Part shown: piece after piece, positions 1,968 through 15,183 of the stretch
Numbering within the stretch: position 1 is the first letter of the stretch
Layout: each line of letters starts with the position of its first letter
IMG/VR virus record: IMGVR_UViG_2706794678_000013
Direction: 5' to 3' (one strand)
Origin: a virus
Taxonomy: Duplodnaviria > Heunggongvirae > Uroviricota > Caudoviricetes
Length of the DNA: 15,183 nucleotides
Made by a program: the position numbers and the translations under genes
The notes under the pieces: model-generated
The model's input: the letters and a program-made list of their open reading frames with translations, nothing else
Told to the model about the DNA's origin: nothing
Database searches by the model: none

Positions 1968-1981
1968 TTGTCATATCTCAT
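1787..1981 (-). CDS. ralR: RalR (Lar) restriction-alleviation / type I toxin, almost entirely masked; only start region MRYD visible; lower coordinate inferred from 64-aa length
   Basis: Visible minus-strand start ATGAGATATGAC (MRYD) at 1981 preceded by in-frame ATG at 1993 (MRKIMRYD); location directly downstream of recT as in Rac. 3' end not visible. Confidence 0.4.
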
Positions 1982-2036
1982 AATTTTTCTCATAAAAATA
2001 TTTCAAGTTGGCGGTGCATTACACCGCCAGGCTGAA

Positions 2037-2846
2037 TTATTCCTCTGAATTATCGATTACACTGTATTCCCCGGTTAATACAGAGGAATCTGCAGGATCG
2101 ATTGTCAGTGGTTCCTTTTCATCCATTGATACTGCACGCTGGATCTCAATTGATACGGGCAGATATTTGAACAGGCGACGAATAGCCGTTTTCTTTGCCA
2201 TTTCTTCCCAGTGAGTTACCCACGGCCCGTTATTACCAGCTTTACTCTGGCTGCGCACCAGCTCAATCTGTTTGCGCGTCATAACTTCAAACTGAGTACC
2301 TCCGTCTTTCAGTCTTGCGACAGCATAGACGTGGGTAACAGGGGCATCTTCGTTTTCTCCTGGGCGGTGTATTAACTTTTCATCAAGGCCAAATTCGAAA
2401 TTAAACTCGTCACCTTCACGGACAACACGGGCTGACAGGCTGGCGATTTGACCTGAACGGCGAGCCAGATCAATCATGCCGCGATAGCCAATGATTAGCT
2501 GAACGTTTTTTTTACCGCTCTTTTCGTTTTTATTACCAAAAGGCAGTAAATATGCATGACCGAGGGCGCTACCGGGCTCAAGTCCGAGCTGTGAACACTG
2601 TACGATTGCACTGACAAAACTCATAGTGTCACAGTTTCCTAACGCCGGAACTTTACGAATTTCTGTGGTGGCGATACGGATCATACGTTCAGCCGTCATA
2701 TGGCGTGGAAGAGCTGCTGCCAGTTGCTCTTTCATTGATGGCTGGTTAATAAAACTAATCACGTCGTTATTTTTAATTGCTGCTGGTGCACGGTTTCCCT
2801 GAGTTTTTTGCAGATCGGCTTTTGCGATTGGTGGTTGCTTAGTCAT
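2037..2846 (-). CDS. recT: RecT single-strand annealing recombinase, 269 aa
   Basis: Minus ORF; sequence from [28 protein letters not shown] matches remembered Rac RecT; start ATG at 2846 overlaps recE stop by 8 nt; upstream in-frame ATG at 2903 rejected. Confidence 0.9.
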
Positions 2847-5439
2847 TTGCATATTCCTTAGCCCAGCGGGGCAGTGATAACGTCTTAATAGCTGGCCATT
2901 CATCGGTATTGAGGCAGTCAGCCAGGGTTCGCAGATTGCGGTGATATTCCAGCTGACCTGCCAGTTTTGCTTCTTCGCCCATCATGAAAATTTCAACCGG
3001 ATAACGTCCGCATTCAATAGTTGTGCTGGCAACCAGAAAAACGAAAGTTGGCTGCACTCCAAACTGTGCTTCATAACCGTCACTGTAGAATGCATCCTGA
3101 ACGTGATAGCGGTAGTCGTAATAAGCGGTTTTGAATCGTTGAATATCCGCCGTAGTTTTCACGTCCATGATCCAGTGAAATTCAGGGATAATTTTGTCCG
3201 GACGGCACCGACACAAAATTGCTGTTTCAGGATCTTCCCAGTAAATTGATGATTCAGCGTGTCCGGCGCTTTCAACAAGCCATTGCCCCAGCGGCAAAGC
3301 CATAACGCTCTGATACATGAGTTCAATTTTCCGGCCTTCTTCGGCAGTGATAACCGTTTTTCCTGTGCTTGCGCATTCCCTCAGAAACGCTTTCTCTTCT
3401 TCTTTTCCGGAGTTTGTCCGGCGGTTAAATTCAGGTGCTACGATAAAGCGGTTACTGAATTCTTCCGGCTCAAGTACCCGGCAGTGGAAAGCGGTTCCTA
3501 AATCGAGCGTTTTTGTCTTTGTGGTGTCCACGGGGGCATTTTTACGCCACAAATACAGTGCCGGAGTATCAGCAATGTCATCGAGCTGAGACTTACTGAC
3601 ACCGGGACCCGCGTGGTAATTCTCATTCGAAATTCCGTAATAAATACCTGGCTCTATGTCTTCTACGATTACGGGATCTGCGACTTCGCCAGTTTCATCA
3701 CTGCAATCGCGATGCGGATCGCTGCCAGCATTCTCATTGTGCGGATGTTCAGCGCCTTCCATTTCCTCCGGATCATTTTCCTTAGCTTCAACCTGACTCT
3801 CTTCATCGAATGTTTCCTGGTATGTTGCGTCGCCCATCACCGCACCACAGTCAGGGCAGTTATCCCCGCCAGTCTGGCCGCAGGCATTGCAGGCTATTTC
3901 CGGTTCCTGTTGCACTACTGGCTCAGGTTGATTCATATCCGGGCTGGTTTTTTCCGTTTCTGGCTGGTTCTGGTACACACAATCGCGAGTCTGGATCCCC
4001 TTTACCCATTTCGGATCGTTCGGGTCGCTAATTCCGTCAACAAATTCACCACGTGATGCAGCAAGCAATTTATCGGCATCGACAGGATTTTTTGATGGAA
4101 TGTTTTTCCGGGCTTCATGGAGTTCTGCCCGCAGTTCCTGATATTTCGCATCAACAGAATTTACCTGTGACTGAGCATCCAGCGGCTGCGTGTCCTGATG
4201 ATGTTCAGTTGCGTCCGGTTCCATTGTTTCAGCCTCTCCCTGTTCAACTGCCGTTGTTCCAGATGGTTGCGGTTTTTCTTCATCATCCTGTTTTCCTTCT
4301 TCTGTTACTCGCTGCGGCATCGGGGCAGAGGAGCGACCGCAGGCAATATCCACGATTTCCGGATCAGGGTTGGCATGATCGGTTTCAGTCAGTACTTTGT
4401 TCAGATATTCAGTGACGTGCGCGGGGATGACCTCGATCCCAATTGGTGCTTCTTTTACGGACGCAACCACGATGGCGCGGGAATAATCCAGCCCGCCAGG
4501 CATGGTGATGAATTTGTCGCGGAAAACAGAAAAGGGCGGTTTATTTTCAGCGATAATTTCCTCAATGCGTTTAGCGTGTGCCGGATGAAGGTTATAGATG
4601 TCCAGATCCATTGAACGGGCCAGTACGCCAGTGGCTACGTCCCGCGCCAGTGACGTCAGATCGTGTACGAAACCTTCGCCGCGATCGGTGAGGTTTCCGC
4701 CGCCAGCATTAGCACCGGAAGCCGTGCGAGTGATGTGTGAAACACGATTACCCTTCATCCACTCTTTTGTCAGCAGTCCTCGATCGGTGTAGTCAGCGTT
4801 CAGGTATGCTTCGAAAAAAGCAGTTATCAGTCCCAGGTTTGAATTACCAGGATTAGGGAAAACTTTGTCAGTGTCACGAACCAGTTTGTGGAGTTCGCGA
4901 ATTTCCAGCGGGTCGAGCAGGCTGGTTTTGTGGGAAACAGCCAGGGCAGTAACAGCCGGTAGTTCTTCAGCCCGAGCAATGTGTAATGCCTGGAGTCCGT
5001 CGCGTGAAACGTGCGTTACCGGTTTTTCGCTGCCGTGTTGAGCAAGCCAACGAATGGGCAGTTCCTGGCCAGAAATTGGGAGTAGCATATTCTCCTCAAT
5101 CTCAGTCATGTCTTCGCCGTTGACGTTGGTATTGCCTTGATAGTGAGCGTTGTCTGGTGCTGCTCCCGGTTTTAGTTCCCATGTCATGGAGTCTTTGCTG
5201 AGTTGATAGCGTTCACTCCAGGTAAAATCGATCTCACCTTCAGCGGGCAGGTCATTAACGACAGGAAAATTCGTGGCAACAGCTTTAAAATAGCTGCTCA
5301 GTTTTTTACCTGACTTAACGANNNNNNNNNNNNNNNNNNNNNNNNNNNNNNNNNNNNNNNNNNNNNNNNNNNNNNNNNNNNNNNNNNNNNNNNNNNNNNN
5401 NNNNNNNNNNNNNNNNNNNNNNNNNNNNNNNNNNNNNNN
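2839..5439 (-). CDS. recE: RecE exonuclease VIII; 5' end (about 39 codons) lies inside the N-run, start coordinate inferred from 866-aa length
   Basis: Minus ORF with no stop between 2839 and the N-run at 5322; visible sequence ...[61 protein letters not shown] matches remembered RecE; C-terminal exonuclease domain, internal Cys cluster [16 protein letters not shown]. Track ORF start at 5187 is only the first internal Met. Confidence 0.85.
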
Positions 5440-5580
5440 NNNNNNNNNNNNNNNNNNNNNNNNNNNNNNNNNNNNNNNNNNNNNNNNNNNNNNNNNNNNN
5501 NNNNNNNNNNNNNNNNNNNNNNNNNNNNNNNNNNNNNNNNNNNNNNNNNNNNNNNNNNNNNNNNNNNNNNNNNNNNNNNN
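5322..5580. other. Run of 259 N (unresolved or masked bases)
   Basis: Direct observation; hides recE start, the racC-recE intergenic region and racC stop. Confidence 1.
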
Positions 5581-5827
5581 TTAGAGTTGCCAGAAATTCG
5601 GCTTTTTTTTCTGCGGGCAGATTCTTTCCGATATGCACCAGGCACATTTTTTTGACACCTTCATCAAGTGTTTTTACGTTGCCTGATGGACCATCGATAT
5701 CAACCACAGTGAATGGGGTTTCTTTATTTTCTGTTTTAATTACGTAGCCAATGCGCTTTCCTTCCAGATTCACCTCGTGAACAATGTCATCGGTAGTTAC
5801 AACAGTGGCTTCATAATTGGTAATCAT
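5552..5827 (-). CDS. racC: RacC, small prophage protein (about 91 aa); 3' end inside N-run, lower coordinate inferred
   Basis: Minus ORF from ATG at 5827 (MITNYEATVVTTDDIVHEVNLEGKRIGYVIKTENKETPF...) with AAGGAGA Shine-Dalgarno 5-6 nt upstream; matches remembered RacC. Confidence 0.75.
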
Positions 5828-5901
5828 GTTTTTCTCCTTAATTAAGGTTGAGCGAATACCTGCCATTTCTGGCATAAATTCAGTTTCGAATAGTCAATTA
5901 A

Positions 5902-6072
5902 TTAAAGTTCATGTGCCATCTGGTCTTTTTCGGCACAAGCTTCACTGCAATATTTTCTCGGTTCGTCTTTTGATAAAATCCCGTGCATGAAGTGAAGCAT
6001 TCTTTCAATAGCTTTGCTTTCTTCAACGTCTTTTTTGCAAAGGTGGTAAGCACATTTTATTTTCTTAGTCAT
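5902..6072 (-). CDS. ydaE: YdaE-like small Cys/His-rich (putative zinc-binding) protein, 56 aa; not in the supplied ORF track (below length cut-off)
   Basis: Read by hand on minus strand: [56 protein letters not shown], stop TAA at 5902-5904; start ATG overlaps kilR stop (ATGA). Confidence 0.7.
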   Translation of the reverse strand: MTKKIKCAYHLCKKDVEESKAIERMLHFMHGILSKDEPRKYCSEACAEKDQMAHEL

Positions 6073-6293
6073 CACCATGACTCCGCCTTTACAGGTAAAC
6101 CATCACGACCGAGGAAGACTTTAATCATGCGGTCAGTAATGCATGTTTTTGTGGTCAGGTTACGAATATATAGTTTTCGCTTTTTAATATTGTTTGCCGA
6201 GGCAATATATGTCCGGCCTTCATGAAGAACATAATCGCCAGGAGTCACACACTGACGTGGTATTTCATCAGTTCCGAAGTGATGTGCAATCAT
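6072..6293 (-). CDS. kilR: KilR (YdaD) cell-division inhibitor / killing protein, 73 aa
   Basis: Minus ORF; [73 protein letters not shown] matches remembered KilR; start at 6293 with GGAGA RBS (the upstream ATG at 6305 sits inside the RBS). Confidence 0.8.
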
Positions 6294-6465
6294 AATTATC
6301 TCCATTTTTACAAATGAACTTTGTTGATGCGGTGCCTGGTGCCTCCAGGTGACTGCAACCAGTTAACAATTACAGTCGGCTTTCCCACCCAAACCAATAA
6401 GGACTAACATGACTTTTAACTGTGCCACGTGCGCTTAGCCGCATTCACCGCATCACAAAATTCAC

Positions 6466-6516
6466 TTTAAAAAGGGCGGACATCAGCCGAACTTCAAGAA
6501 AAAAACTGATGCCGCC
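6466..6516 (-). terminator. Possible leftward intrinsic terminator or RNA hairpin in the kilR-sieB intergenic region
   Basis: Inverted repeat GGCGGACATCAG (6475-6486) / CTGATGCCGCC (6506-6516) with an 18-nt loop; on the minus strand the stem is followed by CTTTTTAAA (6466-6474). Seen by eye only. Confidence 0.25.
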
Positions 6517-6734
6517 AGGACTACACACAGCAATGTCGTTATTTACAACCGGAGGCGCACTCCCACCATTTAAATTTAACAGACAAGACCGACTCTTTAT
6601 GGATATCGGAAATGCGCCTTCGTGTTGTGCCCGGTTTTATTTCACCACCTCCGGGCTTCGGTGGTCTCGGCTATACCCCTACAGCGAGAGCTTGTGTTAA
6701 CATTTCAATACCCTTACAGTTGAGAGTTATTGAT

Positions 6735-7223
6735 ATGTTGGATGTATTTACTCCATTGTTGAAACTTTTTGCTAACGAGCCACTCGAAATACTTATGTAT
6801 ACGATTATCATTTTTGGTCTCACTCTCTGGCTGATACCGAAAGAGTTTACTGTCGCATTCAATGCTTATACTGAAATACCTTGGCTCTTTCAGATTATCG
6901 TTTTTGCCTTTTCTTTCGTGGTCGCCATTTCCTTCTCAAGATTGCGAGCACATATTCAAAAGCATTATTCATTACTACCAGAGCAACGAGTATTGCTTCG
7001 TTTATCTGAGAAAGAAATCGCTGTATTTAAAGATTTCCTTAAAACAGGAAATCTTATTATCACTTCTCCTTGCCGTAACCCGGTTATGAAAAAATTAGAA
7101 CGGAAGGGCATCATTCAACATCAGAGTGATAGCGCAAACTGTTCTTATTATCTCGTCACCGAAAAATACTCCCATTTTATGAAGTTATTCTGGAACAGCA
7201 GGAGTAGACGTTTTAATCGTTAG
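6735..7223 (+). CDS. sieB: SieB superinfection-exclusion (abortive infection) membrane protein, 162 aa
   Basis: Plus ORF from ATG 6735 with GAGAG RBS 8 nt upstream; MLDVFTPLLKLFANEPLEILMYTIIIFGLTLWLIPKEF... hydrophobic N-terminus; matches remembered Rac SieB. The 41-codon upstream extension from 6612 is Pro/Gly-rich and lacks an RBS. Confidence 0.85.
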   Translation: MLDVFTPLLKLFANEPLEILMYTIIIFGLTLWLIPKEFTVAFNAYTEIPWLFQIIVFAFSFVVAISFSRLRAHIQKHYSLLPEQRVLLRLSEKEIAVFKDFLKTGNLIITSPCRNPVMKKLERKGIIQHQSDSANCSYYLVTEKYSHFMKLFWNSRSRRFNR

Positions 7224-7375
7224 CTTACTGTGTGCTTCTCCAACCATCGGCGCGCACCAGTTTCGGTTTTAAATGTTTTGCTTTTGGTATACGTCATGGC
7301 AGTGAACGTTCCATCCTGGTTGGGGAACACGCCGCACACCAGGGATTCGTTGTTGCCGAGGTCGATTTTTTGCAT
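7220..7375 (-). CDS. ydaF: YdaF-like small protein, 51 aa; not in supplied ORF track
   Basis: Read by hand on minus strand: MQKIDLGNNESLVCGVFPNQDGTFTAMTYTKSKTFKTETGARRWLEKHTVS, stop TAA at 7220-7222; convergent 4-nt overlap with sieB stop. Confidence 0.65.
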   Translation of the reverse strand: MQKIDLGNNESLVCGVFPNQDGTFTAMTYTKSKTFKTETGARRWLEKHTVS

Positions 7376-7385
7376 TTTGCGAATC

Positions 7386-7520
7386 TCACATCTTGTTGCT
7401 GTGTATAGCGACTTCTGCCTGCCAGAGATCCCAGTCGTTGCTGCGTAAAGCCTGCACAGCCTGGTTGTAAGTGATACCGCAACAATCCATCAAATACTGA
7501 ACTACTTCGTAATGCACCAT
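7386..7520 (-). CDS. ydaG: YdaG-like small protein, 44 aa
   Basis: Minus ORF; internal start at 7520 (MVHYEVVQYLMDCCGITYNQAVQALRSNDWDLWQAEVAIHSNKM) preceded by GGGGAGAG RBS; first gene of the leftward operon. Confidence 0.7.
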   Translation of the reverse strand: MVHYEVVQYLMDCCGITYNQAVQALRSNDWDLWQAEVAIHSNKM

Positions 7521-7684
7521 CTTATCTCTCCCCTTAACGCCGGGTGGCGGAACTGAAACCTGCTGCACTGCAAAATCTGAACCCTGCCGTCATGTTCATA
7601 CGCCTCGGGCTGGCTACTTAACCCCTGACCACTGCCTGGTAACTCGAAGTATTGCCCTGCGTTCTGTGGGGCGGGGTGGGTTGG

Positions 7685-7740
7685 TAGGTATATAATGTAC
7701 TTTGTGTTCATTGATGTAAAGTACTATAAGTACATTTTGT
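7685..7740 (-). promoter_or_regulatory. Putative leftward early promoter/operator region (OL/pL analogue) downstream of racR stop
   Basis: AT-rich block with ATGTAC / GTAC repeats (aatgtac 7694-7700, gtac 7721-7724, gtacat 7730-7735) and the inverted pair GTACTTT...AAAGTAC; minus-strand TTTACA (7720-7715) with TTATAT/CATTAT -10-like hexamers 15-19 nt downstream. Same ATGTAC motif recurs in the racR-ydaS intergenic region. Confidence 0.35.
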
Positions 7741-7810
7741 GTGTAAAAAAATGAGATGGGATAAAGTGAAGCACAAACCCGGAGGGGGACGCTACCGGAT
7801 TTATGCTGGT

Positions 7811-8230
7811 TTAAGAGGCTTTTTGTTTTTTCTTTCGTGCTAGCTCTTCGTAAATTGCATTGTACTTCTGTTTTTTCTCCTCAAGAGTTTTTAAAAGTTC
7901 ATCTGTCTCACTGTCAGGGAGCTCGTCCAGAAGGTCAATGATGATTTTTTGTCTTGGATTTAACTCCTGATAGAAACGTACCTGTCCACTTTCTTCTGTA
8001 TCCTCTCCCAAAAGATAGGTTGGTGTTGTTCCAATGAGTGTTGCTAATTCCCTTAATTTCTCTCGGCGAGGAATTGTTTCGCCATTAAACCATTTGCTAA
8101 CCGCTTTTGGTGTTAATTTCATTCGACGGGCAATTTCTGCCTGCCTTCCATGTTGTTCATAACCAGCGTTTTCACAGGCTAGCGCAAGCCTACTGGCGAA
8201 CTCTTTACGCGCTTTATCTTCATGAACCAT
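7811..8230 (-). CDS. racR: RacR prophage repressor, HTH XRE-family (CI-like), 139 aa from ATG 8230 (alternative GTG start at 8248 gives 145 aa)
   Basis: Minus ORF; helix-turn-helix QAEIARRMKLTPKAVSKWFNGETIPRREKLRELATLIGTTPTYLLGED; divergently oriented to ydaS as expected for a repressor/cro pair. Track start at 8248 is a GTG codon. Confidence 0.8.
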   Translation of the reverse strand: MVHEDKARKEFASRLALACENAGYEQHGRQAEIARRMKLTPKAVSKWFNGETIPRREKLRELATLIGTTPTYLLGEDTEESGQVRFYQELNPRQKIIIDLLDELPDSETDELLKTLEEKKQKYNAIYEELARKKKQKAS

Positions 8231-8309
8231 AAGTTCAATGATATTCACTCTTGAATGTACTGTCAGTTCTGTTATAGCATGTACTCAAAGTTCACATTGT
8301 GAGGGTGAT
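8231..8309. promoter_or_regulatory. Divergent racR / ydaS promoter-operator region (OR analogue)
   Basis: 79-bp intergenic region between divergent start codons; repeated ATGTAC motif (8255-8260, 8279-8284), inverted repeat TTCAA(8234-8238)/TTGAA(8251-8255); plus-strand TTGAAT (8251-8256) -16 nt- TATAGC (8273-8278) as a candidate rightward promoter. Confidence 0.4.
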
Positions 8310-8564
8310 ATGAACCAGAAAACACTTGAAGATGTAATCAAAACTGTTCGCGTTTCTGTTGTGGCCGACGTTTGTGGTGTCAGCCAAAGAGCAATCTACA
8401 AATGGATGGATAACGGAAAATTGCCTCGCACAGAATATACCGGCGAAACAAATTACGCTGAAAAAATCGCTCATGCATCAAACGGATTATTTTCTGCTGA
8501 TGTAATTTTAACTATTGGCAGAAATAAAACTACTACGAAAAAGCTGATGGGAGTTGATTCATGA
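8310..8564 (+). CDS. ydaS: YdaS, Cro-like HTH DNA-binding protein, 84 aa
   Basis: Plus ORF from ATG 8310 with GAGGGTGA RBS; HTH VADVCGVSQRAIYKWMDNGKLP; stop overlaps ydaT start (ATGA). Confidence 0.8.
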   Translation: MNQKTLEDVIKTVRVSVVADVCGVSQRAIYKWMDNGKLPRTEYTGETNYAEKIAHASNGLFSADVILTIGRNKTTTKKLMGVDS

Positions 8565-8983
8565 AAATCAAGCATGAGCACATCGAGTCAGTGTTGTTAG
8601 CCCTGGCAGCCGAAAAAGGGCAGGCATGGGTAGCCAATGCCATTACTGAAGAATATCTGCGCCAGGGGGGCGGCGAATTGCCCCTGGTACCAGGCAAGGA
8701 CTGGAATAATCAGCAGAATATCTATCACCGTTGGTTGAAAGGTGAAACGAAAACGCAAAGAGAAAAAATTCAGAAGCTGATCCCAGCAATTCTGGCAATC
8801 CTTCCGCGCGAGCTGCGTCACCGACTCTGCATCTTCGATACCCTGGAACGCCGTGCATTACTGGCGGCGCAGGAAGCGTTAAGTACGGCAATTGATGCGC
8901 ATGATGATGCAGTCCAAGCCGTTTACCGGAAAGCGCATTTCAGCGGCGGCGGGTCTTCCGACGATTCTGTCATTGTTCATTAA
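8561..8983 (+). CDS. ydaT: YdaT (CII-like regulator, reported toxic on overexpression), 140 aa
   Basis: Plus ORF MKIKHEHIESVLLALAAEKGQAWVANAITEEYLRQGGGELPL...; translationally coupled to ydaS; matches remembered Rac YdaT. Confidence 0.85.
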   Translation: MKIKHEHIESVLLALAAEKGQAWVANAITEEYLRQGGGELPLVPGKDWNNQQNIYHRWLKGETKTQREKIQKLIPAILAILPRELRHRLCIFDTLERRALLAAQEALSTAIDAHDDAVQAVYRKAHFSGGGSSDDSVIVH

Positions 8984-8995
8984 GCAAAAGTTTCC

Positions 8996-9853
8996 ATGCT
9001 GTTTGTGCTTATTCTAAGCCACCGGGCAGCATCATACGGGGCAATTATGGCCGCATTACCATACATGCAACTGTACATAGCTGATTACCTGGCTGACACC
9101 ATGCATTTGTCAGCAGAGGAGCATGGTGCGTATTTGTTGCTGATGTTCAATTACTGGCAAACAGGAAAGCCAATACCTAAAAACAGGCTGGCAAAAATTG
9201 CCCGTCTGACTAACGAGCGATGGGCTGATGTTGAACCATCCTTGCAGGAGTTTTTTTGCGATAACGGCGAGGAATGGGTGCATCTTCGGATTGAGGAAGA
9301 TCTGGCATCAGTCAGGGAAAAATTAACCAAAAAATCAGCCGCAGGAAAAGCATCTGTTCAGGCCAGAAGAAGCAGAAAGGAAGCAGATGTTCAAACAAAA
9401 CAAGAGAGAAATTTAACAGGTGTTCAAACAGATGTTGAAGTGGTGTTTGAACATGATGTCAACACAAAGGCAACTAATAAAGATACAGATAAAGATCTAA
9501 AAACAGATCCCCCCCTAAATCCCCCCCGGGGGAATCGAGGTGTCAAAAAGTTTGACCCTCTGGATATTGCTTTGCCGAACTGGATTTCTGTCTCGCTTTG
9601 GCGTGAGTGGGTTGAATTTCGCCAGGCATTGCGAAAACCGATTCGAACGGAGCAGGGCGCTAACGGGGCGATACGGGAGCTGGAAAAATTCCGCCAGCAG
9701 GGTTTTTCACCTGAGCAGGTGATTCGACACAGCATCGCCAATGAATACCAGGGCTTGTTCGCGCCGAAAGGTGTTCGACCTGAGACGTTACTCCGACAGG
9801 TTAACACCGTCTCGTTACCGGATAGTGCGATCCCGCCAGGCTTCAGGGGGTAA
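8996..9853 (+). CDS. ydaU: YdaU (DUF1376) replication-initiation-associated protein, 285 aa
   Basis: Plus ORF from ATG 8996 (alternative ATG 9047); conserved N-terminal LPYMQLYIADYLADTMHLSAEEHGAYLLLMFNYW; immediately upstream of the DnaC-like gene. Confidence 0.85.
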   Translation: MLFVLILSHRAASYGAIMAALPYMQLYIADYLADTMHLSAEEHGAYLLLMFNYWQTGKPIPKNRLAKIARLTNERWADVEPSLQEFFCDNGEEWVHLRIEEDLASVREKLTKKSAAGKASVQARRSRKEADVQTKQERNLTGVQTDVEVVFEHDVNTKATNKDTDKDLKTDPPLNPPRGNRGVKKFDPLDIALPNWISVSLWREWVEFRQALRKPIRTEQGANGAIRELEKFRQQGFSPEQVIRHSIANEYQGLFAPKGVRPETLLRQVNTVSLPDSAIPPGFRG

Positions 9854-10148
9854 CTGACCATGAAAAATATTGCGACAGGCGACGTTCTTGAACGTATCCG
9901 CAGACTGGCCCCGTCACATGTAACCGCGCCATTCAAGACGGTAGCGGAGTGGCGCGAGTGGCAACTTTCCGAAGGCCAGAAACGTTGTGAGGAGATCAAC
10001 CGTCAGAATCGTCAGTTGCGGGTGGAAAAAATTCTGAATCGCTCTGGCATCCAGCCATTGCACCGCAAATGCTCGTTTTCGAATTACCAGGTGCAGAACG
10101 AAGCGCAGCGATACGCGTTGAGTCAGGCGAAATCCATCGCTGATGAAC
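9590..10148 (+). repeat. Repeat unit A: ydaU 3' end plus ydaV 5' end; diverged duplicate of 10691-11249 (offset 1101 bp)
   Basis: Collinear nucleotide and protein similarity to the second copy; about 6 differences in the first 60 nt of ydaV counted by eye. Confidence 0.8.
9860..10148 (+). CDS. ydaV: YdaV DnaC-like helicase loader, copy 1, 5' portion only (about 96 codons) before N-run
   Basis: ATG 9860, 6 nt after ydaU stop; MKNIATGDVLERIRRLAPSHVTAPFKTVAEWREWQLSEGQKRCEEINRQNRQLRVEKILNRSGIQPLHRKCSFSNYQVQNEAQRYALSQAKSIADE then Ns. Confidence 0.6.
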
Positions 10149-10398
10149 NNNNNNNNNNNNNNNNNNNNNNNNNNNNNNNNNNNNNNNNNNNNNNNNNNNN
10201 NNNNNNNNNNNNNNNNNNNNNNNNNNNNNNNNNNNNNNNNNNNNNNNNNNNNNNNNNNNNNNNNNNNNNNNNNNNNNNNNNNNNNNNNNNNNNNNNNNNN
10301 NNNNNNNNNNNNNNNNNNNNNNNNNNNNNNNNNNNNNNNNNNNNNNNNNNNNNNNNNNNNNNNNNNNNNNNNNNNNNNNNNNNNNNNNNNNNNNNNNN
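10149..10398. other. Run of 250 N (unresolved or masked bases) hiding the junction between ydaV copy 1 and a second ydaU-like segment
   Basis: Direct observation. Confidence 1.
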
Positions 10399-10954
10399 GC
10401 GTTAATTCAGGTTGGATGGCTGGTCGAAAATGACGGAGGGCTTTCTCTACCTAACTTTGAACGTCATAACGGAAAAAGCTCTAAAAAAAACGGGCGGTTA
10501 CAAACGAGCGAGTAACAAAAATACGCGAACTGAAACGAAAAGGTAACGCTGCCAGCGTTACACAAACGGATCAAAAAGCGTTACCAGAGGAAGAGGAAGA
10601 GGAAGATCTAAATACTGATCTCCCCCTCGCCAAAAACGAGCGTCTAAAAAATTCGAGCCGGAGGCTATTGAGCTGCCCGATTGGTTGCCGGAAACACTCT
10701 GGCATGAGTGGGTCCGGTTCAGACAGGCATTGCGAAAACCGATTCGAACGGAGCAGGGCGCTAACGGGGCGATACGGGAACTGGAAAAATTCCGTCAGCA
10801 GGGTTTTACACCTGAGCAGGTGATTCGACACAGCATCGCCAATGAATACCAGGGCCTGTTCGCGCCGAAAGGTGTTCGGCCTGAGACGTTGCTCCGACAG
10901 GTTAACACCGTCTCGTTGCCGGACAGTGCGATCCCGCCAGGCTTCAGGGGGTAA
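10399..10954 (+). pseudogene. Second, diverged ydaU-like 3' segment, 5'-truncated and interrupted by two apparent 1-nt frameshifts in poly-A runs
   Basis: Three consecutive frames must be joined to follow the ydaU-like protein: ...ENDGGLSLPNFERHNGKSSKK (stop 10513-10515) / RAVTNERVTKIRELKRKGNAASVTQTDQKALPEEEEEEDLNTDLPLAKNER / KKFEPEAIELPDWLPETLWHEWVRFRQALRKPIRTEQGANGAIRELEKFRQQGFTPEQVIRHSIANEYQGLFAPKGVRPETLLRQVNTVSLPDSAIPPGFRG; shifts coincide with A8 (10483-10490) and A6 (10646-10651). Confidence 0.5.
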
Positions 10955-11256
10955 CGGACCATGAAAAATATTGCGACAGGCGGCGTTCTGGAACGCATCC
11001 GCCGACTGACCCCGCCACATGTAACCGCCCCATTCAGAACGGTAGCGGAGTGGCGCGAGTGGCAACTTGCTGAAGGCCAGAAACGTAGCGAGGAGATCAA
11101 CCGCCTGAATCGCCAGTTGCGGGTGGAAAAAATTCTGAATCGCTCAGGCATCCAGCCGTTGCACCGTAAATGCTCGTTTGCGAATTACCAGGTGCAGAAC
11201 GACGGCCAGCGATACGCGTTAAGCCAGGCGAAATCCATCGCCGATGAACTGATGAC
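10691..11256 (+). repeat. Repeat unit B: second copy of ydaU 3' end plus ydaV 5' end; its last 225 bp (11032-11256) are identical to 11511-11735
   Basis: Direct comparison of the sequence on both sides of the N-run 11257-11510. Confidence 0.85.
10961..11256 (+). CDS. ydaV: YdaV DnaC-like helicase loader, copy 2, 5' portion before N-run (may be the same gene as 11511-12186 if the N-run is a scaffolding gap)
   Basis: ATG 10961; MKNIATGGVLERIRRLTPPHVTAPFRTVAEWREWQLAEGQKRSEEINRLNRQLRVEKILNRSGIQPLHRKCSFANYQVQNDGQRYALSQAKSIADELM then Ns. Confidence 0.55.
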
Positions 11257-11510
11257 NNNNNNNNNNNNNNNNNNNNNNNNNNNNNNNNNNNNNNNNNNNN
11301 NNNNNNNNNNNNNNNNNNNNNNNNNNNNNNNNNNNNNNNNNNNNNNNNNNNNNNNNNNNNNNNNNNNNNNNNNNNNNNNNNNNNNNNNNNNNNNNNNNNN
11401 NNNNNNNNNNNNNNNNNNNNNNNNNNNNNNNNNNNNNNNNNNNNNNNNNNNNNNNNNNNNNNNNNNNNNNNNNNNNNNNNNNNNNNNNNNNNNNNNNNNN
11501 NNNNNNNNNN
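11257..11510. other. Run of 254 N flanked by identical 225-bp sequence on both sides
   Basis: Direct observation. Confidence 1.
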
Positions 11511-12186
11511 ATTCAGAACGGTAGCGGAGTGGCGCGAGTGGCAACTTGCTGAAGGCCAGAAACGTAGCGAGGAGATCAACCGCCTGAATCGCCAGTTGCG
11601 GGTGGAAAAAATTCTGAATCGCTCAGGCATCCAGCCGTTGCACCGTAAATGCTCGTTTGCGAATTACCAGGTGCAGAACGACGGCCAGCGATACGCGTTA
11701 AGCCAGGCGAAATCCATCGCCGATGAACTGATGACCGGGTGTACAAATTTTGCGTTCAGCGGAAAACCTGGTACCGGGAAGAATCACTTAGCGGCAGCTA
11801 TCGGGAATCGCCTGCTGAAAGACGGTCAGACAGTGATTGTGGTTACCGTGGCTGATGTTATGAGTGCCCTGCACGCCAGCTATGACGATGGGCAGTCAGG
11901 CGAAAAATTTTTGCGGGAACTATGCGAAGTGGATCTGCTGGTTCTTGATGAAATTGGCATTCAGCGCGAGACGAAAAACGAGCAGGTGGTGCTGCACCAG
12001 ATTGTTGATCGCCGGACAGCGTCGATGCGCAGCGTGGGGATGCTGACAAACCTGAACTATGAGGTGATGAAAACATTGCTCGGCGAGCGGGTGATGGATC
12101 GCATGGTCATGAACGGCGGGCGCTGGGTGAATTTTAACTGGGAGAGCTGGCGTCCGAATGTTAGCCATTCGAGGGTTGTTAAGTAG
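11511..12186 (+). CDS. ydaV: YdaV DnaC-like AAA+ helicase loader, 3' portion from about codon 25 to stop (Walker A and B present)
   Basis: Frame FRTVAEWREWQ... continuing through Walker A GKPGTGKNHLAAAIG and Walker B LLVLDEIG to stop TAG 12184-12186; no start codon visible because sequence begins at N-run. Confidence 0.75.
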
Positions 12187-12200
12187 TTTCAGGAGGATTT

Positions 12201-12623
12201 ATGGCGAAACCTTTTACTCCCGAACAGCGGGAAGAACTGAAGACGCGAATTGTGGAACTCGTGCATCAGGACGGTCGGGTCACGATTCGGCAGTTGTCAG
12301 ATGAAACAGGTATCAGTCGTGCGTCTGTCGGTCGCTTATGCATAGAACTGGTCGCAAGTGGTGATGTATATAATTCTGGCTACGGCTTATTCCCGTCTGA
12401 ACAGGCTCGCAAGGACTGGCAAAGCGCCCGCAAAAAACTCTCGAGAGTAAAGGTGAGGAAACCGGTTGTTGTTGATCCGGACCTTATCTGGTCATTACCT
12501 GACGGAGAAATACGCCGCTACGACAGGCGCCTGAATATAATCTGTCGCGAGTGCCGGAAGAGCGAAGCTATGCAGCGTGTACTGGCTTTCTATCAGGGTA
12601 ATTTTCAGGAGGCGATACTGTGA
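12201..12623 (+). CDS. Ren-like protein (homologue of phage lambda Ren, winged-helix N-terminus), 140 aa
   Basis: ATG 12201 with AGGAGG RBS; C-terminal ICRECRKSEAMQRVLAFY resembles lambda Ren ...KECRQSAAMKRVLAVY as I recall it; position directly after the helicase-loader gene matches lambda ren. Confidence 0.7.
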   Translation: MAKPFTPEQREELKTRIVELVHQDGRVTIRQLSDETGISRASVGRLCIELVASGDVYNSGYGLFPSEQARKDWQSARKKLSRVKVRKPVVVDPDLIWSLPDGEIRRYDRRLNIICRECRKSEAMQRVLAFYQGNFQEAIL

Positions 12624-13037
12624 ATGAAATTAGCTATCAGGCTTCAATTACCGCTGGCATTCGCATCAAAGGAGAGGAGCATGGAAATAAAACCAGAAGA
12701 TGAGTTAAGCAATATCGTTTTATTTCCGGTAAAAGAGGATGACCCTCGTAATCAGGTTAATTTTCTTTATGAGCCATCGGAAAGACCATATTGCCATCAC
12801 GCCTCTGTACGGGTTGACGAAAAAGAGCGTCAGGTCCGCTGTAAAATCTGCGGTGCGGTTGTGGAGCCGTTTGACTGGATGCTCTCTGTGGCAAAAAGAG
12901 AAACCAGACTGGCAGATGATGTAAGGCTATTGCGCCAGGAGGAACAGGAAAGGCGGAGAAATATAGAAAAGCTGATACAGATTGAGCGTAACGCGAAAGC
13001 GCGGATACGCAGGGCGACAAAATCCAGAACTGAATAA
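12624..13037 (+). CDS. Hypothetical protein with Cys/His cluster (CHH...CKIC, zinc-ribbon-like) and basic coiled-coil tail; 137 aa (alternative start 12681 gives 118 aa)
   Basis: ATG 12624 directly follows the Ren-like stop with AGGAGG 11 nt upstream; internal ATG 12681 also has an AGGAG RBS. No family recognised. Confidence 0.6.
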   Translation: MKLAIRLQLPLAFASKERSMEIKPEDELSNIVLFPVKEDDPRNQVNFLYEPSERPYCHHASVRVDEKERQVRCKICGAVVEPFDWMLSVAKRETRLADDVRLLRQEEQERRRNIEKLIQIERNAKARIRRATKSRTE

Positions 13038-13184
13038 TTAAATTTAGCACTGTTAAAAATTTAATCCTTAACCGGAGGGATTTCTGCACCCTCAAATCAT
13101 CAGGAGACCACCCGAAAGGGCGGGGAGCAGTCACACATCTGTTTCCGATAGCCCCGTTCTAATGCTACACTCTTTGATATTTTT

Positions 13185-13871
13185 ATGACCCCAATAAACA
13201 TATTTATGACAGTTGCTGATTTCAAACGGCCCAAATTGGAGCTCCCAAACGGGGCAAACAAACTACTACTGCACTCTTGCTGTGCTCCATGTTCCGGTGA
13301 GGTGATGGAGGCGCTTCAGGCCTCGGGAATCGACTACACCATCTTTTTCTACAACCCGAACATTCATCCTCAGAAAGAGTATTTAATTCGTAAGGATGAG
13401 AATATTCGCTTTGCTGAACAACACGGCGTGCCGTTTATTGATGCTGATTACGACACAGACAACTGGTTTGAACGAGCCAAAGGAATGGAATGGGAGCCCG
13501 AACGAGGGATCCGTTGCACCATGTGTTTTGACATGCGTTTTGAGCGGACAGCGCTGTACGCCGCTGAAAATGGTTTCAGTGTGATCAGCAGTTCACTGGG
13601 CATTTCACGCTGGAAAAATATGCAGCAGGTTAACGACTGTGGGCGGCGAGCCGTCGCGCATTATCCGGGCATGGTGTACTGGGATTATAACTGGCGCAAG
13701 CAGGGCGGCTCGTCCCGTATGATTGAAATCAGCAAGCGCGAAAAATTCTATCAGCAGGAATATTGTGGCTGTGTGTATTCTCTGCGCGATACCAATCTAC
13801 ACCGCAAATCTCAGGGACGCCCTCTTATCAAAATTGGTCAACTCCACTACGGTAAAGAAGAGAAGGAGTGA
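13185..13871 (+). CDS. queH: QueH-family (DUF208) epoxyqueuosine reductase homologue, 228 aa
   Basis: Motifs read directly: [11 protein letters not shown] near N-terminus, [22 protein letters not shown], and EYCGCVYS near C-terminus, collinear with QueH/DUF208 proteins as I recall them. Start may be 13185 or 13206; no clear RBS for either. Confidence 0.8.
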
Positions 13872-13892
13872 TTTTATGGGGCACCTTTCTGA

Positions 13893-13922
13893 TTGATTTC
13901 ATATTGGCGAGGTAAGTAGAAT
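13893..13922 (+). promoter_or_regulatory. Putative sigma70 promoter of the hok-like mRNA
   Basis: TTGATT (13893-13898), 18-nt spacer, TAGAAT (13917-13922); predicted +1 near 13929 where the GC-rich tac-like 5' element GCGGGTGCTTGAGGC begins. Confidence 0.4.
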
Positions 13923-13984
13923 GACTGCGGGTGCTTGAGGCTATCTGCTTCAGGCATGAACACCAAAAGGCAGATAGAGAAAAG

Positions 13985-14050
13985 CCCCAGTTAACATTAC
14001 GCGTCCGGCAAGACGCTTAACATTAATCTGAGGCCAATTTCATGCTTTGC
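13985..14050 (-). ncRNA. sok: Predicted Sok-like antisense RNA (antitoxin of the hok module); coordinates approximate
   Basis: By analogy with hok/sok of plasmid R1: minus-strand promoter-like TTGCCT (complement of 14081-14086), 17-nt spacer, TAACCT (complement of 14057-14062), giving an antisense transcript complementary to the mok leader and start. Not directly demonstrable from sequence. Confidence 0.3.
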
Positions 14051-14254
14051 ACATGTAGGTTAGCCTCTTACATGCCGAAAGGCAAGGAGAAGCAGGCTAT
14101 GAAGCAGCAAAAGGCGATGTTAATCGCCCTGATCGTCATCTGTTTAACCGTCATAGTGACGGCACTGGTAACGAGGAAAGACCTCTGTGAGGTACGAATC
14201 CGAACCGGCCAGACGGAGGTCGCTGTCTTCGTAGACTACGAATCCAGGAAGTAA
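14042..14254 (+). CDS. mok: Mok-like in-frame upstream reading frame of the hok module, 70 aa
   Basis: ATG 14042 in frame with hok; N-terminal extension MLCTCRLASYMPKGKEKQA resembles remembered MokC (MLNTCRVPLTDRKVKEKRA...). Confidence 0.5.
   Translation: MLCTCRLASYMPKGKEKQAMKQQKAMLIALIVICLTVIVTALVTRKDLCEVRIRTGQTEVAVFVDYESRK
14099..14254 (+). CDS. hok: Hok/Gef-family type I toxin (HokD/RelF-like), 51 aa single-TM peptide
   Basis: MKQQKAMLIALIVICLTVIVTALVTRKDLCEVRIRTGQTEVAVFVDYESRK; AAGGAG RBS 9 nt upstream; near-identical over the first 45 aa to remembered HokD and HokC, divergent C-terminus. Confidence 0.85.
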   Translation: MKQQKAMLIALIVICLTVIVTALVTRKDLCEVRIRTGQTEVAVFVDYESRK

Positions 14255-14331
14255 GAGTGACCGGGCGGGGAGCTGATCCCATCCCCGCCCACCTCTGATG
14301 TGTCAGGCATCCTCAACGCACCCGCACTTAA

Positions 14332-14376
14332 CCCGCCCATCGCTGTGATCTCTCAGCGTTTCGGCGGGTTTTTTGT
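14332..14376 (+). terminator. Rho-independent terminator at the 3' end of the hok mRNA
   Basis: CCCGCC (14332-14337) ... GGCGGG (14363-14368) stem followed by TTTTTTG; preceded by a second GC hairpin (14263-14290) and the fbi-like element 14311-14325. Confidence 0.55.
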
Positions 14377-14394
14377 TGTTTATTTCCGGTGAAT

Positions 14395-14422
14395 TTGATT
14401 CGCGCACCTTCGCAGATAGAAT
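14395..14422 (+). promoter_or_regulatory. Putative sigma70 promoter for the downstream nin-like genes
   Basis: TTGATT (14395-14400), 16-nt spacer, TAGAAT (14417-14422); same hexamers as the hok promoter. Confidence 0.35.
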
Positions 14423-14503
14423 CGACTCACTTAAGTAGCGCGCAGGGAGAAGAGGGATGGACCCCGAACAGGGGAGAGCTATTTATCTGGAAGGATTCTG
14501 AAG

Positions 14504-14791
14504 ATGAAAATCGAAGAATTGCGTGAAATTTTTAGTGAAAATGGCCTCTATGCTGTGCGCGTTGAGAATGGAGCGATTGTCAGCCATTGCCGCATTAGAT
14601 GTTTGCAATCTCAACAAAGGAAGAGCGGTGCTGTGTTATTTTATTTTTGTAATGGACTTCTGACGGACGGTTTTATTTTGCGTGAGGACGAATTTGTCAC
14701 ATCATTACGGGTTTTGAAAGAGATTGGTTTTAAGGCTGGTTTTCTGCTTTTGCTGAAGAATAAACTCATCTACAATCTTGAGCAGGATTGA
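14504..14791 (+). CDS. Hypothetical protein, 95 aa
   Basis: ATG 14504 with GGAAGGA RBS 8 nt upstream; no family recognised. Confidence 0.55.
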   Translation: MKIEELREIFSENGLYAVRVENGAIVSHCRIRCLQSQQRKSGAVLFYFCNGLLTDGFILREDEFVTSLRVLKEIGFKAGFLLLLKNKLIYNLEQD

Positions 14792-14829
14792 ACTCCTGCT
14801 GTGTAACACCGTGCCACCGGAGAAAGCCG

Positions 14830-15183
14830 ATGGCACATATACAACTGGTCAAACAAACCTCTTCCGGATTACTTCTCCCGGCGACGCCGGAGAGTTGCGA
14901 TTTTCTGCATCAAATCAAAATAGGTGAGTGGATACACGCAGACTTTAAGCGTGTGTGTAACTACGCATTCCACAAGCGTTTTTTCAAACTCCTGCAACTG
15001 GGTTTCGATTACTGGACTCCGGTCGGTGGGGCGATCACGCCTCGCGAACGAAAACTGGTGTCCGGTTTCGTTGATTACCTGTGTGAATCAGTAGGCCGGG
15101 AACATACGCCAGCTCTGAGCGAAGCCGCAGAGCAATTGAGGTGTACTGGCAATAGCGGACACTACCATTTGTTCTTTTTTTAA
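14830..15183 (+). CDS. Lambdoid nin-region protein (possibly DUF1367-like), 117 aa as read; stop codon is the last three bases of the window
   Basis: ATG 14830 with GGAGAAAG RBS; MAHIQLVKQTSSGLLLPATPESCDFLHQIKIGEWIHADFKRVCNYAFHKRFFKLLQLGFDYWTP... resembles prophage proteins I recall; family name uncertain. Track ORF start at 14788 is a TTG codon. Confidence 0.55.
   Translation: MAHIQLVKQTSSGLLLPATPESCDFLHQIKIGEWIHADFKRVCNYAFHKRFFKLLQLGFDYWTPVGGAITPRERKLVSGFVDYLCESVGREHTPALSEAAEQLRCTGNSGHYHLFFF

Follow-up and report, generated by a model that had tools for sequence, protein, structure and literature searches.

A ydaU-ydaV segment written three times in a Rac-type prophage scaffold, and its probable origin in the contigs of two prophage replication modules

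The Rac prophage of E. coli, located at ttcA, is characterized by the gene order intR-xisR-ralR-recT-recE-kilR-sieB-ydaS/T-ydaU-ydaV, and annotated Rac prophages possess one ydaU-ydaV pair. Another described locus is an IS-flanked lambdoid remnant adjoining modABC in complete Shigella sonnei genomes, among them FORC_011 (CP010829) and 75/02 (CP019689), both accessions being S. sonnei (PMC5447701). The same locus is present in E. coli FDAARGOS_944, which carries the intact counterpart of the S. sonnei remnant. The window analyzed here, a stretch of viral DNA of 15,183 nucleotides in all, resembles both systems. Its first three contigs (c1-c3) share the Rac gene order and display 99-100% identity with annotated Rac prophages, and its last two (c4 and c5) are 100% and 99.9% identical to the S. 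sonnei remnant. A segment spanning the 3' part of ydaU and the 5' part of ydaV is written three times in this window. The triplication is very probably an assembly artefact, in which contigs of two related prophage replication modules would have been joined by Ns, being neither separated nor merged.

Written layout of the window

Four N-runs divide the window into five contigs: c1 (1-1657), c2 (1968-5321), c3 (5581-10148), c4 (10399-11256, + strand) and c5 (11511-15183). From left to right, the runs hold 310 N (N-run 1, 1658-1967), 259 N (N-run 2, 5322-5580), 250 N (N-run 3, 10149-10398) and 254 N (N-run 4, 11257-11510). The offset between copies of the ydaU-3'/ydaV-5' segment is 1101 from copy 1 to copy 2 and 479 from copy 2 to copy 3. 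An earlier note on this DNA had described three copies with their junctions hidden in N-runs. The repeat finder bears this out, with a 225-nt unit at 9931-10155 (88%), 11032-11256 and 11511-11735 (both 100%), and a 300-nt pair of 84% identity at 9520-9819 and 10621-10920; the junctions fall in N-runs 3 and 4. Copies 1 and 2 are collinear and diverged by about ten percent, as had been estimated: 511 of 559 positions (91.4%) are identical when 9590-10148 is compared with the sequence 1101 further on. Their homology begins at ~9520, and to the left of 9520/10621 the identity is ~30%, the chance level. Copies 2 and 3 are identical at 225 of 225 positions (11032-11256 and 11511-11735), a match that cannot be explained by chance. 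The 225 nt of copy 2 end at N-run 4, and those of copy 3 start at its other edge, exactly where the earlier note had placed them.

The ydaV reading breaks off 1 nt past codon 96 in copy 1 and 2 nt past codon 98 in copy 2, so that both N-runs do open at nearly the same codon. The offset of 1101 keeps the reading frame and that of 479 breaks it; the mechanical ORFs at 9860-10405 and 10961-11524 pass through the Ns and soon meet stops. A look-up of the former ORF found no record of it. It was correctly foreseen that Ns of true length would leave the ydaV copies truncated or out of frame. Two readings had been proposed without ranking, a scaffolding artefact and a genuine tandem rearrangement: the former is borne out in nearly all its particulars by the results below, and the latter found no support.

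Rac and remnant parts of the window

Contigs c1-c3 cover the left and the middle of a Rac-type prophage. They harbor intR, xisR, recT, recE, kilR, sieB, repressor/cro-like genes, ydaT, ydaU and the 5' end of ydaV, the named genes standing in the order annotated for Rac in E. coli. Called genes with Pfam hits in the relatives L004-L012 exhibit the same Rac content and order. The window begins exactly at the intR stop codon; in loci encoding an IntR identical to that of the window, a TtcA-type gene (PF01171) is found directly after intR. Over all comparable bases (678+3354+4568), c1-c3 are 100% identical to the Rac contigs L015 and L020. Both possess a single ydaU (285 aa) and a single ydaV (248 aa), followed directly by DUF977, a 137-aa gene and queH, as in c5. 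In c3, ydaU (8996-9853, + strand) encodes a 285-residue DUF1376 protein that matches Pfam PF07120 with 92.2 bits (cut-off 30.1) over residues 22-104; no other initiator-like gene of the region is complete. The portion of ydaU that recurs in copy 2 consists of the final 119 codons, from ~9494. The following 5' end of ydaV (copy 1, 9860-10148, + strand) covers codons 1-96 of the Rac allele up to the end of c3 and is identical to ydaV of L015 and L020. The right arm of the window differs from that of Rac, as ydaV is followed directly by DUF977 without a DUF1627 gene, a rarer variant. Coverage of c5 reaches at least 80% in only 2 of 5,426 complete E. coli genomes.

Contig c4 comprises the 3' part of an initiator-like gene of 262 aa, here a pseudogene (10399-10954, + strand), and copy 2 of the ydaV 5' end (10961-11256, + strand), corresponding to codons 1-98 of the remnant allele. 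All of its 858 bases are identical to the S. sonnei loci L014, L016, L017, L019, L025 and L026. Identity with E. coli FDAARGOS_944 is 98.5%, the differences being a run of A8 versus A6, one missing unit of a 10-bp repeat and one substitution. Sequencing errors were considered as the cause of these indels and rejected, as the S. sonnei genomes carry exactly the same ones. The window and the S. sonnei remnant thus share both frameshifting lesions of the initiator gene, as well as the IS junction in the DUF1367 gene described below.

Contig c5 is 99.9% identical (3669/3673) to the same complete S. sonnei locus as c4 (CP010829, CP019689 and others). It starts with copy 3 (11511-11735, + strand), which would be the DNA of 11032-11256 written a second time, and continues with the remainder of ydaV (11736-12186, + strand, stop at 12184-12186). 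The stretch 11923-15136 (+ strand) encompasses DUF977, the 137-aa gene, queH, sok/hok, rem and the 5' part of the DUF1367 gene, and is common, base for base, to Rac contig L020 and the S. sonnei remnant. Directly compared, L020 and L014 agree at every one of 3,211 nt until the L020 contig runs out at window position 15133, the last 3 nt of the shared stretch (to 15136) resting on c5 alignments to Rac-type relatives that end there. At 15137-15183 the DUF1367 gene is broken by the end of an IS3-family element, just as happens in the S. sonnei remnant, and the window terminates within this element. Contig c5 matches L014-L019 to its last base, while Rac-type relatives such as L015 diverge at 15137. 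In L017, the genes adjoining this element carry HTH_Tnp_1 and rve Pfam domains. Contigs bearing the 137-aa gene are mostly 2-5 kb long; this was discounted as evidence of repeat collapse, as the IS copies bounding the remnant, ~4.3 kb apart, explain the distribution by themselves.

Contig ends, gap lengths and the order of the copies

In complete S. sonnei genomes, the overlap of c4 with c5 amounts to exactly 225 bp, which are single-copy there. The two contigs lie at 8255-9112 and 8888-12560 in L014, and at 4295463-4296328 and 4296104-4299729 in FDAARGOS_944 (overlap 4296104-4296328); the same overlap is found in the drafts L026-L029. Once merged, c4 and c5 depart from the S. sonnei locus at 4 of 4,306 bp, and the merger restores an intact ydaV ORF of 248 aa. 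N-run 4 has been placed between contigs that truly overlap, and copies 2 and 3 would be one and the same DNA, an unmerged 225-bp contig overlap. Deletion of 10149-11728 (1,580 bp, i.e. 1101+479) produces 7,973 bp matching Rac contig L020 with a single mismatch, at 11784. Copies 1 and 2 match two different loci, with unrelated left flanks and 91.4% identity, which indicates that they are not derived from one another. They would represent two different prophage modules, those of Rac and of the IS-flanked lambdoid remnant, and N-run 3 would falsely link a Rac contig to one of the other prophage, c3 and c4 mapping to different loci in complete genomes. Of the 39 related loci that were fetched, 37 hold the 225-bp unit, always singly; as, in addition, the tandem junctions would all fall in N-runs, the real copies would number at most two, at separate loci, and not three in tandem.

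A genuine tandem rearrangement would imply that recombined lambdoid prophages gave rise to ydaU-ydaV', then to a partial second initiator with ydaV', and finally to a ydaV lacking its first 23 codons, all junctions being unsequenced. If this order were true, the record would describe a hybrid of Rac and a second lambdoid remnant, with two truncated ydaV genes and one deleted at its 5' end. The order does stand written in the record; moreover, lambdoid prophages recombine, copies of the segment are dispersed in E. coli, a complete genome showing as many as 4 places, and IS elements heavily rearrange S. sonnei genomes. However, both junctions would need to lie wholly within N-runs, the 225/225 identity of copies 2 and 3 concerns DNA that is single-copy in every reference, and merging or deleting the stretch yields two known loci almost perfectly. 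Furthermore, the contig ends coincide with the boundary at which the paralogues converge, the gap lengths are demonstrably unreliable, and three broken ydaV genes would be left, with no functional loader. Such a rearrangement is considered highly improbable.

The lengths of the N-runs can be compared with real sequence in references with 100% identical flanks. There, 257 real bases take the place of N-run 1 (310 N) and 248 that of N-run 2 (259 N); the runs are too long by 53 and 11, respectively, and the N-run lengths are therefore estimates. S. sonnei drafts of the remnant locus (CXBX01, CXDQ01, CXCJ01) also contain N-runs, of varying length. These values bear on the proposal that the Ns are length-preserving masks on a finished sequence, in which case the 479-bp offset would mean that ydaV nt 72-550 are truly duplicated in tandem within the gene. 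The four runs are indeed alike in size (250-310), and one contig collection is documented to contain a small number of stretches masked as N. Yet the excesses of 53 and 11 bases between identical flanks contradict length preservation, exact patterns from c4 (53 nt) and from the allele-switch region of c5 (120 nt) are absent from the collection with masked stretches (genome_contigs), as from metagenome_contigs, and the left part of c4 belongs to another locus than c3. Masking is scarcely credible, even less so than the tandem rearrangement.

The scaffolding artefact can be described as follows. The window would be a short-read scaffold, and the sequenced material would hold two real paralogous replication modules: that of Rac, with ydaU and the Rac ydaV allele on c3, and that of a second lambdoid remnant, with the 262-aa initiator pseudogene and the remnant ydaV allele on c4. 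The two modules differ by ~9% up to ydaV codon 94 and are then identical for 62 nt, next for 80 nt and next for more than 3.2 kb. The last clustered Rac/remnant difference before the c3 end is at 10141, and beyond the last such difference c3 continues for 7 nt and c4 for 14 nt. Because the paralogues become identical past codon 94, both allele-specific contigs would stop there, and both would lead into c5. The scaffolder would have linearized this fork as c3 - Ns - c4 - Ns - c5, assigning each gap an estimated size above zero. On its left, c5 would extend 225 bp into the remnant allele and repeat the tail of c4, unmerged. This last step calls for an extension or gap-filling step, or for an overlap assembler, as a pure de Bruijn assembler would not output two contigs with 225 bp in common.

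The error at N-run 4 (+254 written versus -225 true) far exceeds those of N-runs 1 and 2 (+53 and +11). It requires the extra assumption that links into the shared repeat misled the size estimate.

A switch of allele is visible within c5, at 11784-11922 (+ strand). Position 11784 is of the remnant type, and positions 11865, 11889, 11919 and 11922 are of the Rac type. The latter four read T, T, A and A in c5 and in the Rac contexts L009, L010, L015 and L020, and C, C, G and G in all 12 remnant-context sequences checked. They constitute the difference between c5 and the S. sonnei remnant. The combination of a remnant base at 11784 with Rac bases at 11865-11922 implies that c5 is a chimera or a consensus of both paralogues. 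The switch between 11784 and 11865 is the one indirect sign of a collapsed or shared contig.

The artefact might also have arisen from a mixed or contaminated sample, c3 and c4 coming from two strains, e.g. a Rac-carrying strain and a typical S. sonnei, serialized as alternative branches. The complete S. sonnei genomes retrieved through the 137-aa protein exhibit the remnant context only. In the draft L020, the c3-type left arm passes unbroken into the shared arm, suggestive of one copy in that genome, and the exact start of the window at the intR stop codon also fits such a mixture. In look-ups with IntR, YdaU, the 137-aa protein and the 89-aa c4 ORF, Rac and remnant contexts never came from the same assembly among the places shown; FDAARGOS_944 has two places that match c4. 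On the other hand, a rac-like prophage in ttcA has been reported for S. sonnei 53G (PMC4632033). Many E. coli genomes carry 2-4 copies of the segment, and the c1-c3 haplotype is 100% identical to two drafts only. A mixture of strains is unlikely, although less so than the two rivals above, and the presence of both modules in one genome is the favored origin of the false join.

Replication modules and known systems

Both modules are of the ordinary lambdoid prophage kind, each pairing a single initiator with a DnaC-like loader. The merged YdaV (248 aa) is a DnaC/IstB-like ATPase, with 71.4 bits for Pfam IstB_IS21 (cut-off 24.1) and 510 bits for NCBIfam PRK12377 (cut-off 389). Its score against the DnaC equivalog model, 306, is below the cut-off of 357, which makes YdaV a paralogue and not DnaC itself. 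Over its C-terminal 119 residues YdaU shares 85% identity with the 262-aa protein encoded by the other prophage, while the N-terminal parts are unrelated. The 262-aa protein has no Pfam or NCBIfam match, and a literature search on a replication function of ydaU/ydaV returned no papers. Lambdoid initiators are of modular build, and the architecture of YdaU and the 262-aa protein, two unrelated N-terminal parts with one common C-terminal part of 119 aa beside the loader gene, parallels it. As in the O/P-type module of lambda, a gene at the initiator position directly precedes the loader, here a DnaC/IstB-like AAA+ gene, and the location is likewise the early-right operon, after the genes at the cro/cII positions. 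In contrast to lambda, YdaU (DUF1376) and the 262-aa protein display no detected sequence relation to O, YdaV is DnaC-like rather than P-like, and the replication role remains putative here.

The biology beneath the presumed artefact is already known, namely modules of a single initiator and a DnaC-like loader and mosaic exchange among lambdoid prophages. The triplication would not be a real feature and would be of interest solely for quality control. A literal reading of the scaffold would give three broken copies of ydaV and an additional, spurious piece of an initiator gene, within a prophage 1.6 kb too long whose right arm is a chimera of Rac and another prophage. Prophage typing, the counting of pseudogenes and the search for duplications would be led astray by such errors, and the N-runs of such records are unreadable as true lengths. 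False duplications beside scaffold gaps and linearized repeat forks form a recognized class of short-read artefacts. The window shares with the former the identical sequence at both edges of an N-run, merger of which restores gene and collinearity, and with the latter the small contig of a paralogous locus slotted before a shared repeat, with estimated gap sizes; from this class, the window exhibits no difference in kind.

The repeat as written

The stretch is written as five contigs, c1 (1-1657), c2 (1968-5321), c3 (5581-10148), c4 (10399-11256) and c5 (11511-15183), separated by N-runs of 310 (1658-1967), 259 (5322-5580), 250 (10149-10398) and 254 N (11257-11510), numbered gaps 1 to 4 from left to right. 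A repeat finder places a 225-nt unit at three positions, 9931-10155 (88%), 11032-11256 and 11511-11735 (100%), with spacings of 1101 and 479, as well as a second pair of 300 nt at 9520-9819 and 10621-10920 (84%). The observations of the earlier note are all present in the sequence. Copy 1 (end of c3) and copy 2 (c4), described there as collinear and roughly 10 percent diverged, are identical at 511 of 559 positions (91.4%) when its range, 9590-10148, is compared at an offset of 1101 nt, identity being at chance level left of ~9520. The last 225 bp of copy 2 are indeed repeated as copy 3 at the start of c5, and gaps 3 and 4 begin at nearly the same ydaV codon, with 96 full codons in copy 1 and 98 in copy 2.

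A Rac-type prophage and a second element

The window is a Rac-type prophage starting at the intR stop codon, with the gene order intR, xisR, recT, recE, kilR, sieB, repressor/cro-type genes, ydaT, ydaU (8996-9853, a DUF1376 protein) and ydaV, matching complete E. coli annotations. The intR stop codon has its final base at position 1, which leaves attL and ttcA outside; the unusual length of 15,183 suggests that the window possibly represents an entire scaffold, limited by the prophage end and an IS. Contigs c1, c2 and c3 are 100% identical, over all comparable bases, to the draft Rac contigs L015 (GCA_014010215.1) and L020 (GCA_013840545.1). Both possess a single ydaU (285 aa) and a single ydaV (248 aa), and the genes directly behind these come in the same order as in c5: DUF977, a 137-aa gene, queH, hok, rem and DUF1367. 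Removing 10149-11728 (1,580 bp, or 1101+479) leaves 7,973 bp that equal L020 with one mismatch (11784). YdaV is a DnaC/IstB-like AAA+ ATPase, above the cut-offs of Pfam IstB_IS21 and NCBIfam PRK12377 and under that of the DnaC equivalog model.

Sequence comparison assigns c4 to another element than Rac. Its first 222 nt have no Rac counterpart, and it is identical (858/858) to one locus in the complete genomes CP049169, CP019689, CP035008 and CP010829 (loci L014, L016, L017, L019 and L025), CP019689 and CP010829 being Shigella sonnei 75/02 and FORC_011 (PMC5447701). At this locus, an IS-riddled lambdoid remnant adjoins modABC and harbors DUF1391, repressor, cro, ydaT, an IS element, a fragment of a 262-aa gene in the initiator position, ydaV, DUF977 and more genes. 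The intact version of this prophage is found in E. coli FDAARGOS_944, from which c4 differs solely by an A8/A6 run, one absent 10-bp repeat unit and one substitution. The 3' part of the 262-aa gene (10399-10954), intact in FDAARGOS_944, is a pseudogene here, with A8 for A6 at 10488-10495 and one 10-bp TCCCCCTAAA unit lost after 10620. As S. sonnei carries identical lesions, sequence errors are ruled out and the lesions are genuine.

The 262-aa protein has no match in Pfam or NCBIfam. It shares with YdaU only the C-terminal 119 residues (85% identity), their N-terminal parts being unrelated, which explains why the homology between copies 1 and 2 starts inside the gene. A domain-level mosaic boundary is thus located within the initiator gene, beside the loader gene, at about 9494-9853 and 10595-10954. 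Rac prophages carry either initiator type, of 285 or 262 aa, depending on the strain (L004-L012).

Copy 3, on this comparison, is copy 2 written a second time. At the S. sonnei loci, c4 corresponds to 8255-9112 and c5 to 8888-12560, and in FDAARGOS_944 they map to 4295463-4296328 and 4296104-4299729; in both, the two contigs overlap by precisely these 225 bp, present as a single copy. Merging c4 and c5 restores an intact YdaV of 248 aa, with 4 mismatches over 4,306 bp against the S. sonnei locus, and the independent remnant drafts L026-L029 run through this point without interruption. The segment is a dispersed repeat, with as many as 4 occurrences in a complete E. coli genome. Among the 39 loci fetched, the unit is single in all 37 that hold it, and none has copy 1 followed by copy 2.

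The earlier note left two readings, a genuine tandem rearrangement and a scaffolding artefact. The former is very improbable: merging or deletion reproduces reference loci, all novel junctions would have to sit within Ns, and functional ydaV would be lost altogether. The latter is supported, and we hold with high confidence that the apparent triplication, not a real feature, stems from scaffolding. There are at most two real copies, at separate loci, and no tandem triplication.

Contig ends and gap lengths

Over the repeated ydaU-3'/ydaV-5' block, Rac (L020) and the remnant (L014) differ at 44 of 560 positions, the last clustered difference being at 10141/11242. Beyond it come 62 identical nt, a SNP at 11784, 80 nt, four SNPs at 11865-11922 and 3,211 nt without difference. 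Past the last clustered difference, c3 continues for 7 nt and c4 for 14 nt, hence the nearly identical codon at which both N-runs start. The two allele-specific contigs break off where the paralogues converge, both entering the same downstream contig. Contig c5 is itself mixed, being remnant-type over 11511-11784 (T at 11784) and Rac-type at 11865 (T), 11889 (T), 11919 (A) and 11922 (A), positions that read C, C, G, G in 12/12 remnant-context sequences checked and T, T, A, A in four c3-like Rac contexts. This switch between 11784 and 11922 may reflect a consensus drawn from two collapsed paralogues, a contig mis-extension or a real gene-conversion tract. The last 47 nt of c5 (15137-15183) are the remnant's IS junction. 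The window ends 47 nt inside an IS3-family element that cuts the DUF1367 gene at a site shared with complete S. sonnei genomes, and the draft contig L020, with its Rac left arm, stops 3 nt short of the junction at 15137.

Gap 1 measures 257 bp in L015/L020 versus 310 N, and gap 2 248 bp versus 259 N, with flanks 100% identical to c1/c2 and c2/c3, which indicates that the N-runs do not give true lengths. Length-preserving masking, contradicted by both gaps and by the absence of this sequence from the collection described as masked, is very improbable as well. The hidden stretches (the DUF1187/rcbA 5' part with ralR/lar, and the recE start with its upstream region) have 93-98% identical paralogues in other lambdoid prophage loci, so the breaks at 1658-1967 and 5322-5580 are probably repeat-caused too. 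N-runs of variable length also occur in the same remnant in the S. sonnei drafts CXBX01, CXDQ01 and CXCJ01. The error at gap 4 (+254 written versus -225 true) far exceeds those at gaps 1 and 2, and the artefact model must assume that links into the shared repeat confused the estimate.

Origin of the layout and known modules

The layout is best explained by an assembly fork, in which the entry contigs c3 and c4 lead to one shared contig, c5; the fork was set out linearly with estimated positive gaps, leaving the 225-bp c4/c5 overlap unmerged. Since contigs sharing 225 bp would not come out of a pure de Bruijn assembler, an overlap assembler or an extension or gap-filling step is implied. The two modules might come from a mixed sample, as the remnant context alone is seen in complete S. 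sonnei genomes among the matches returned. Their presence in one genome is nevertheless favored, because a rac-like prophage has been reported in ttcA of S. sonnei 53G (PMC4632033) and the remnant is present in S. sonnei genomes.

Further downstream, c5 carries a hok/sok type I toxin-antitoxin locus (13929-14254), whose sok RNA (13929-14104; RF01794, 117 bits) overlaps the start of the hok ORF (14042-14254). The 137-aa ORF (12624-13037), called as 118 aa in some references, exhibits a weak, below-threshold zinc-ribbon match (PF08271, 21 bits against a cut-off of 29). Patchy allele differences within it (12716-13015) in the S. sonnei drafts L026 and L027 suggest a further paralogous copy.

With the scaffolding artefact set aside, the underlying biology is already known: lambdoid prophages carry a module of a single initiator and a DnaC-like loader, and their mosaic exchange is known too.
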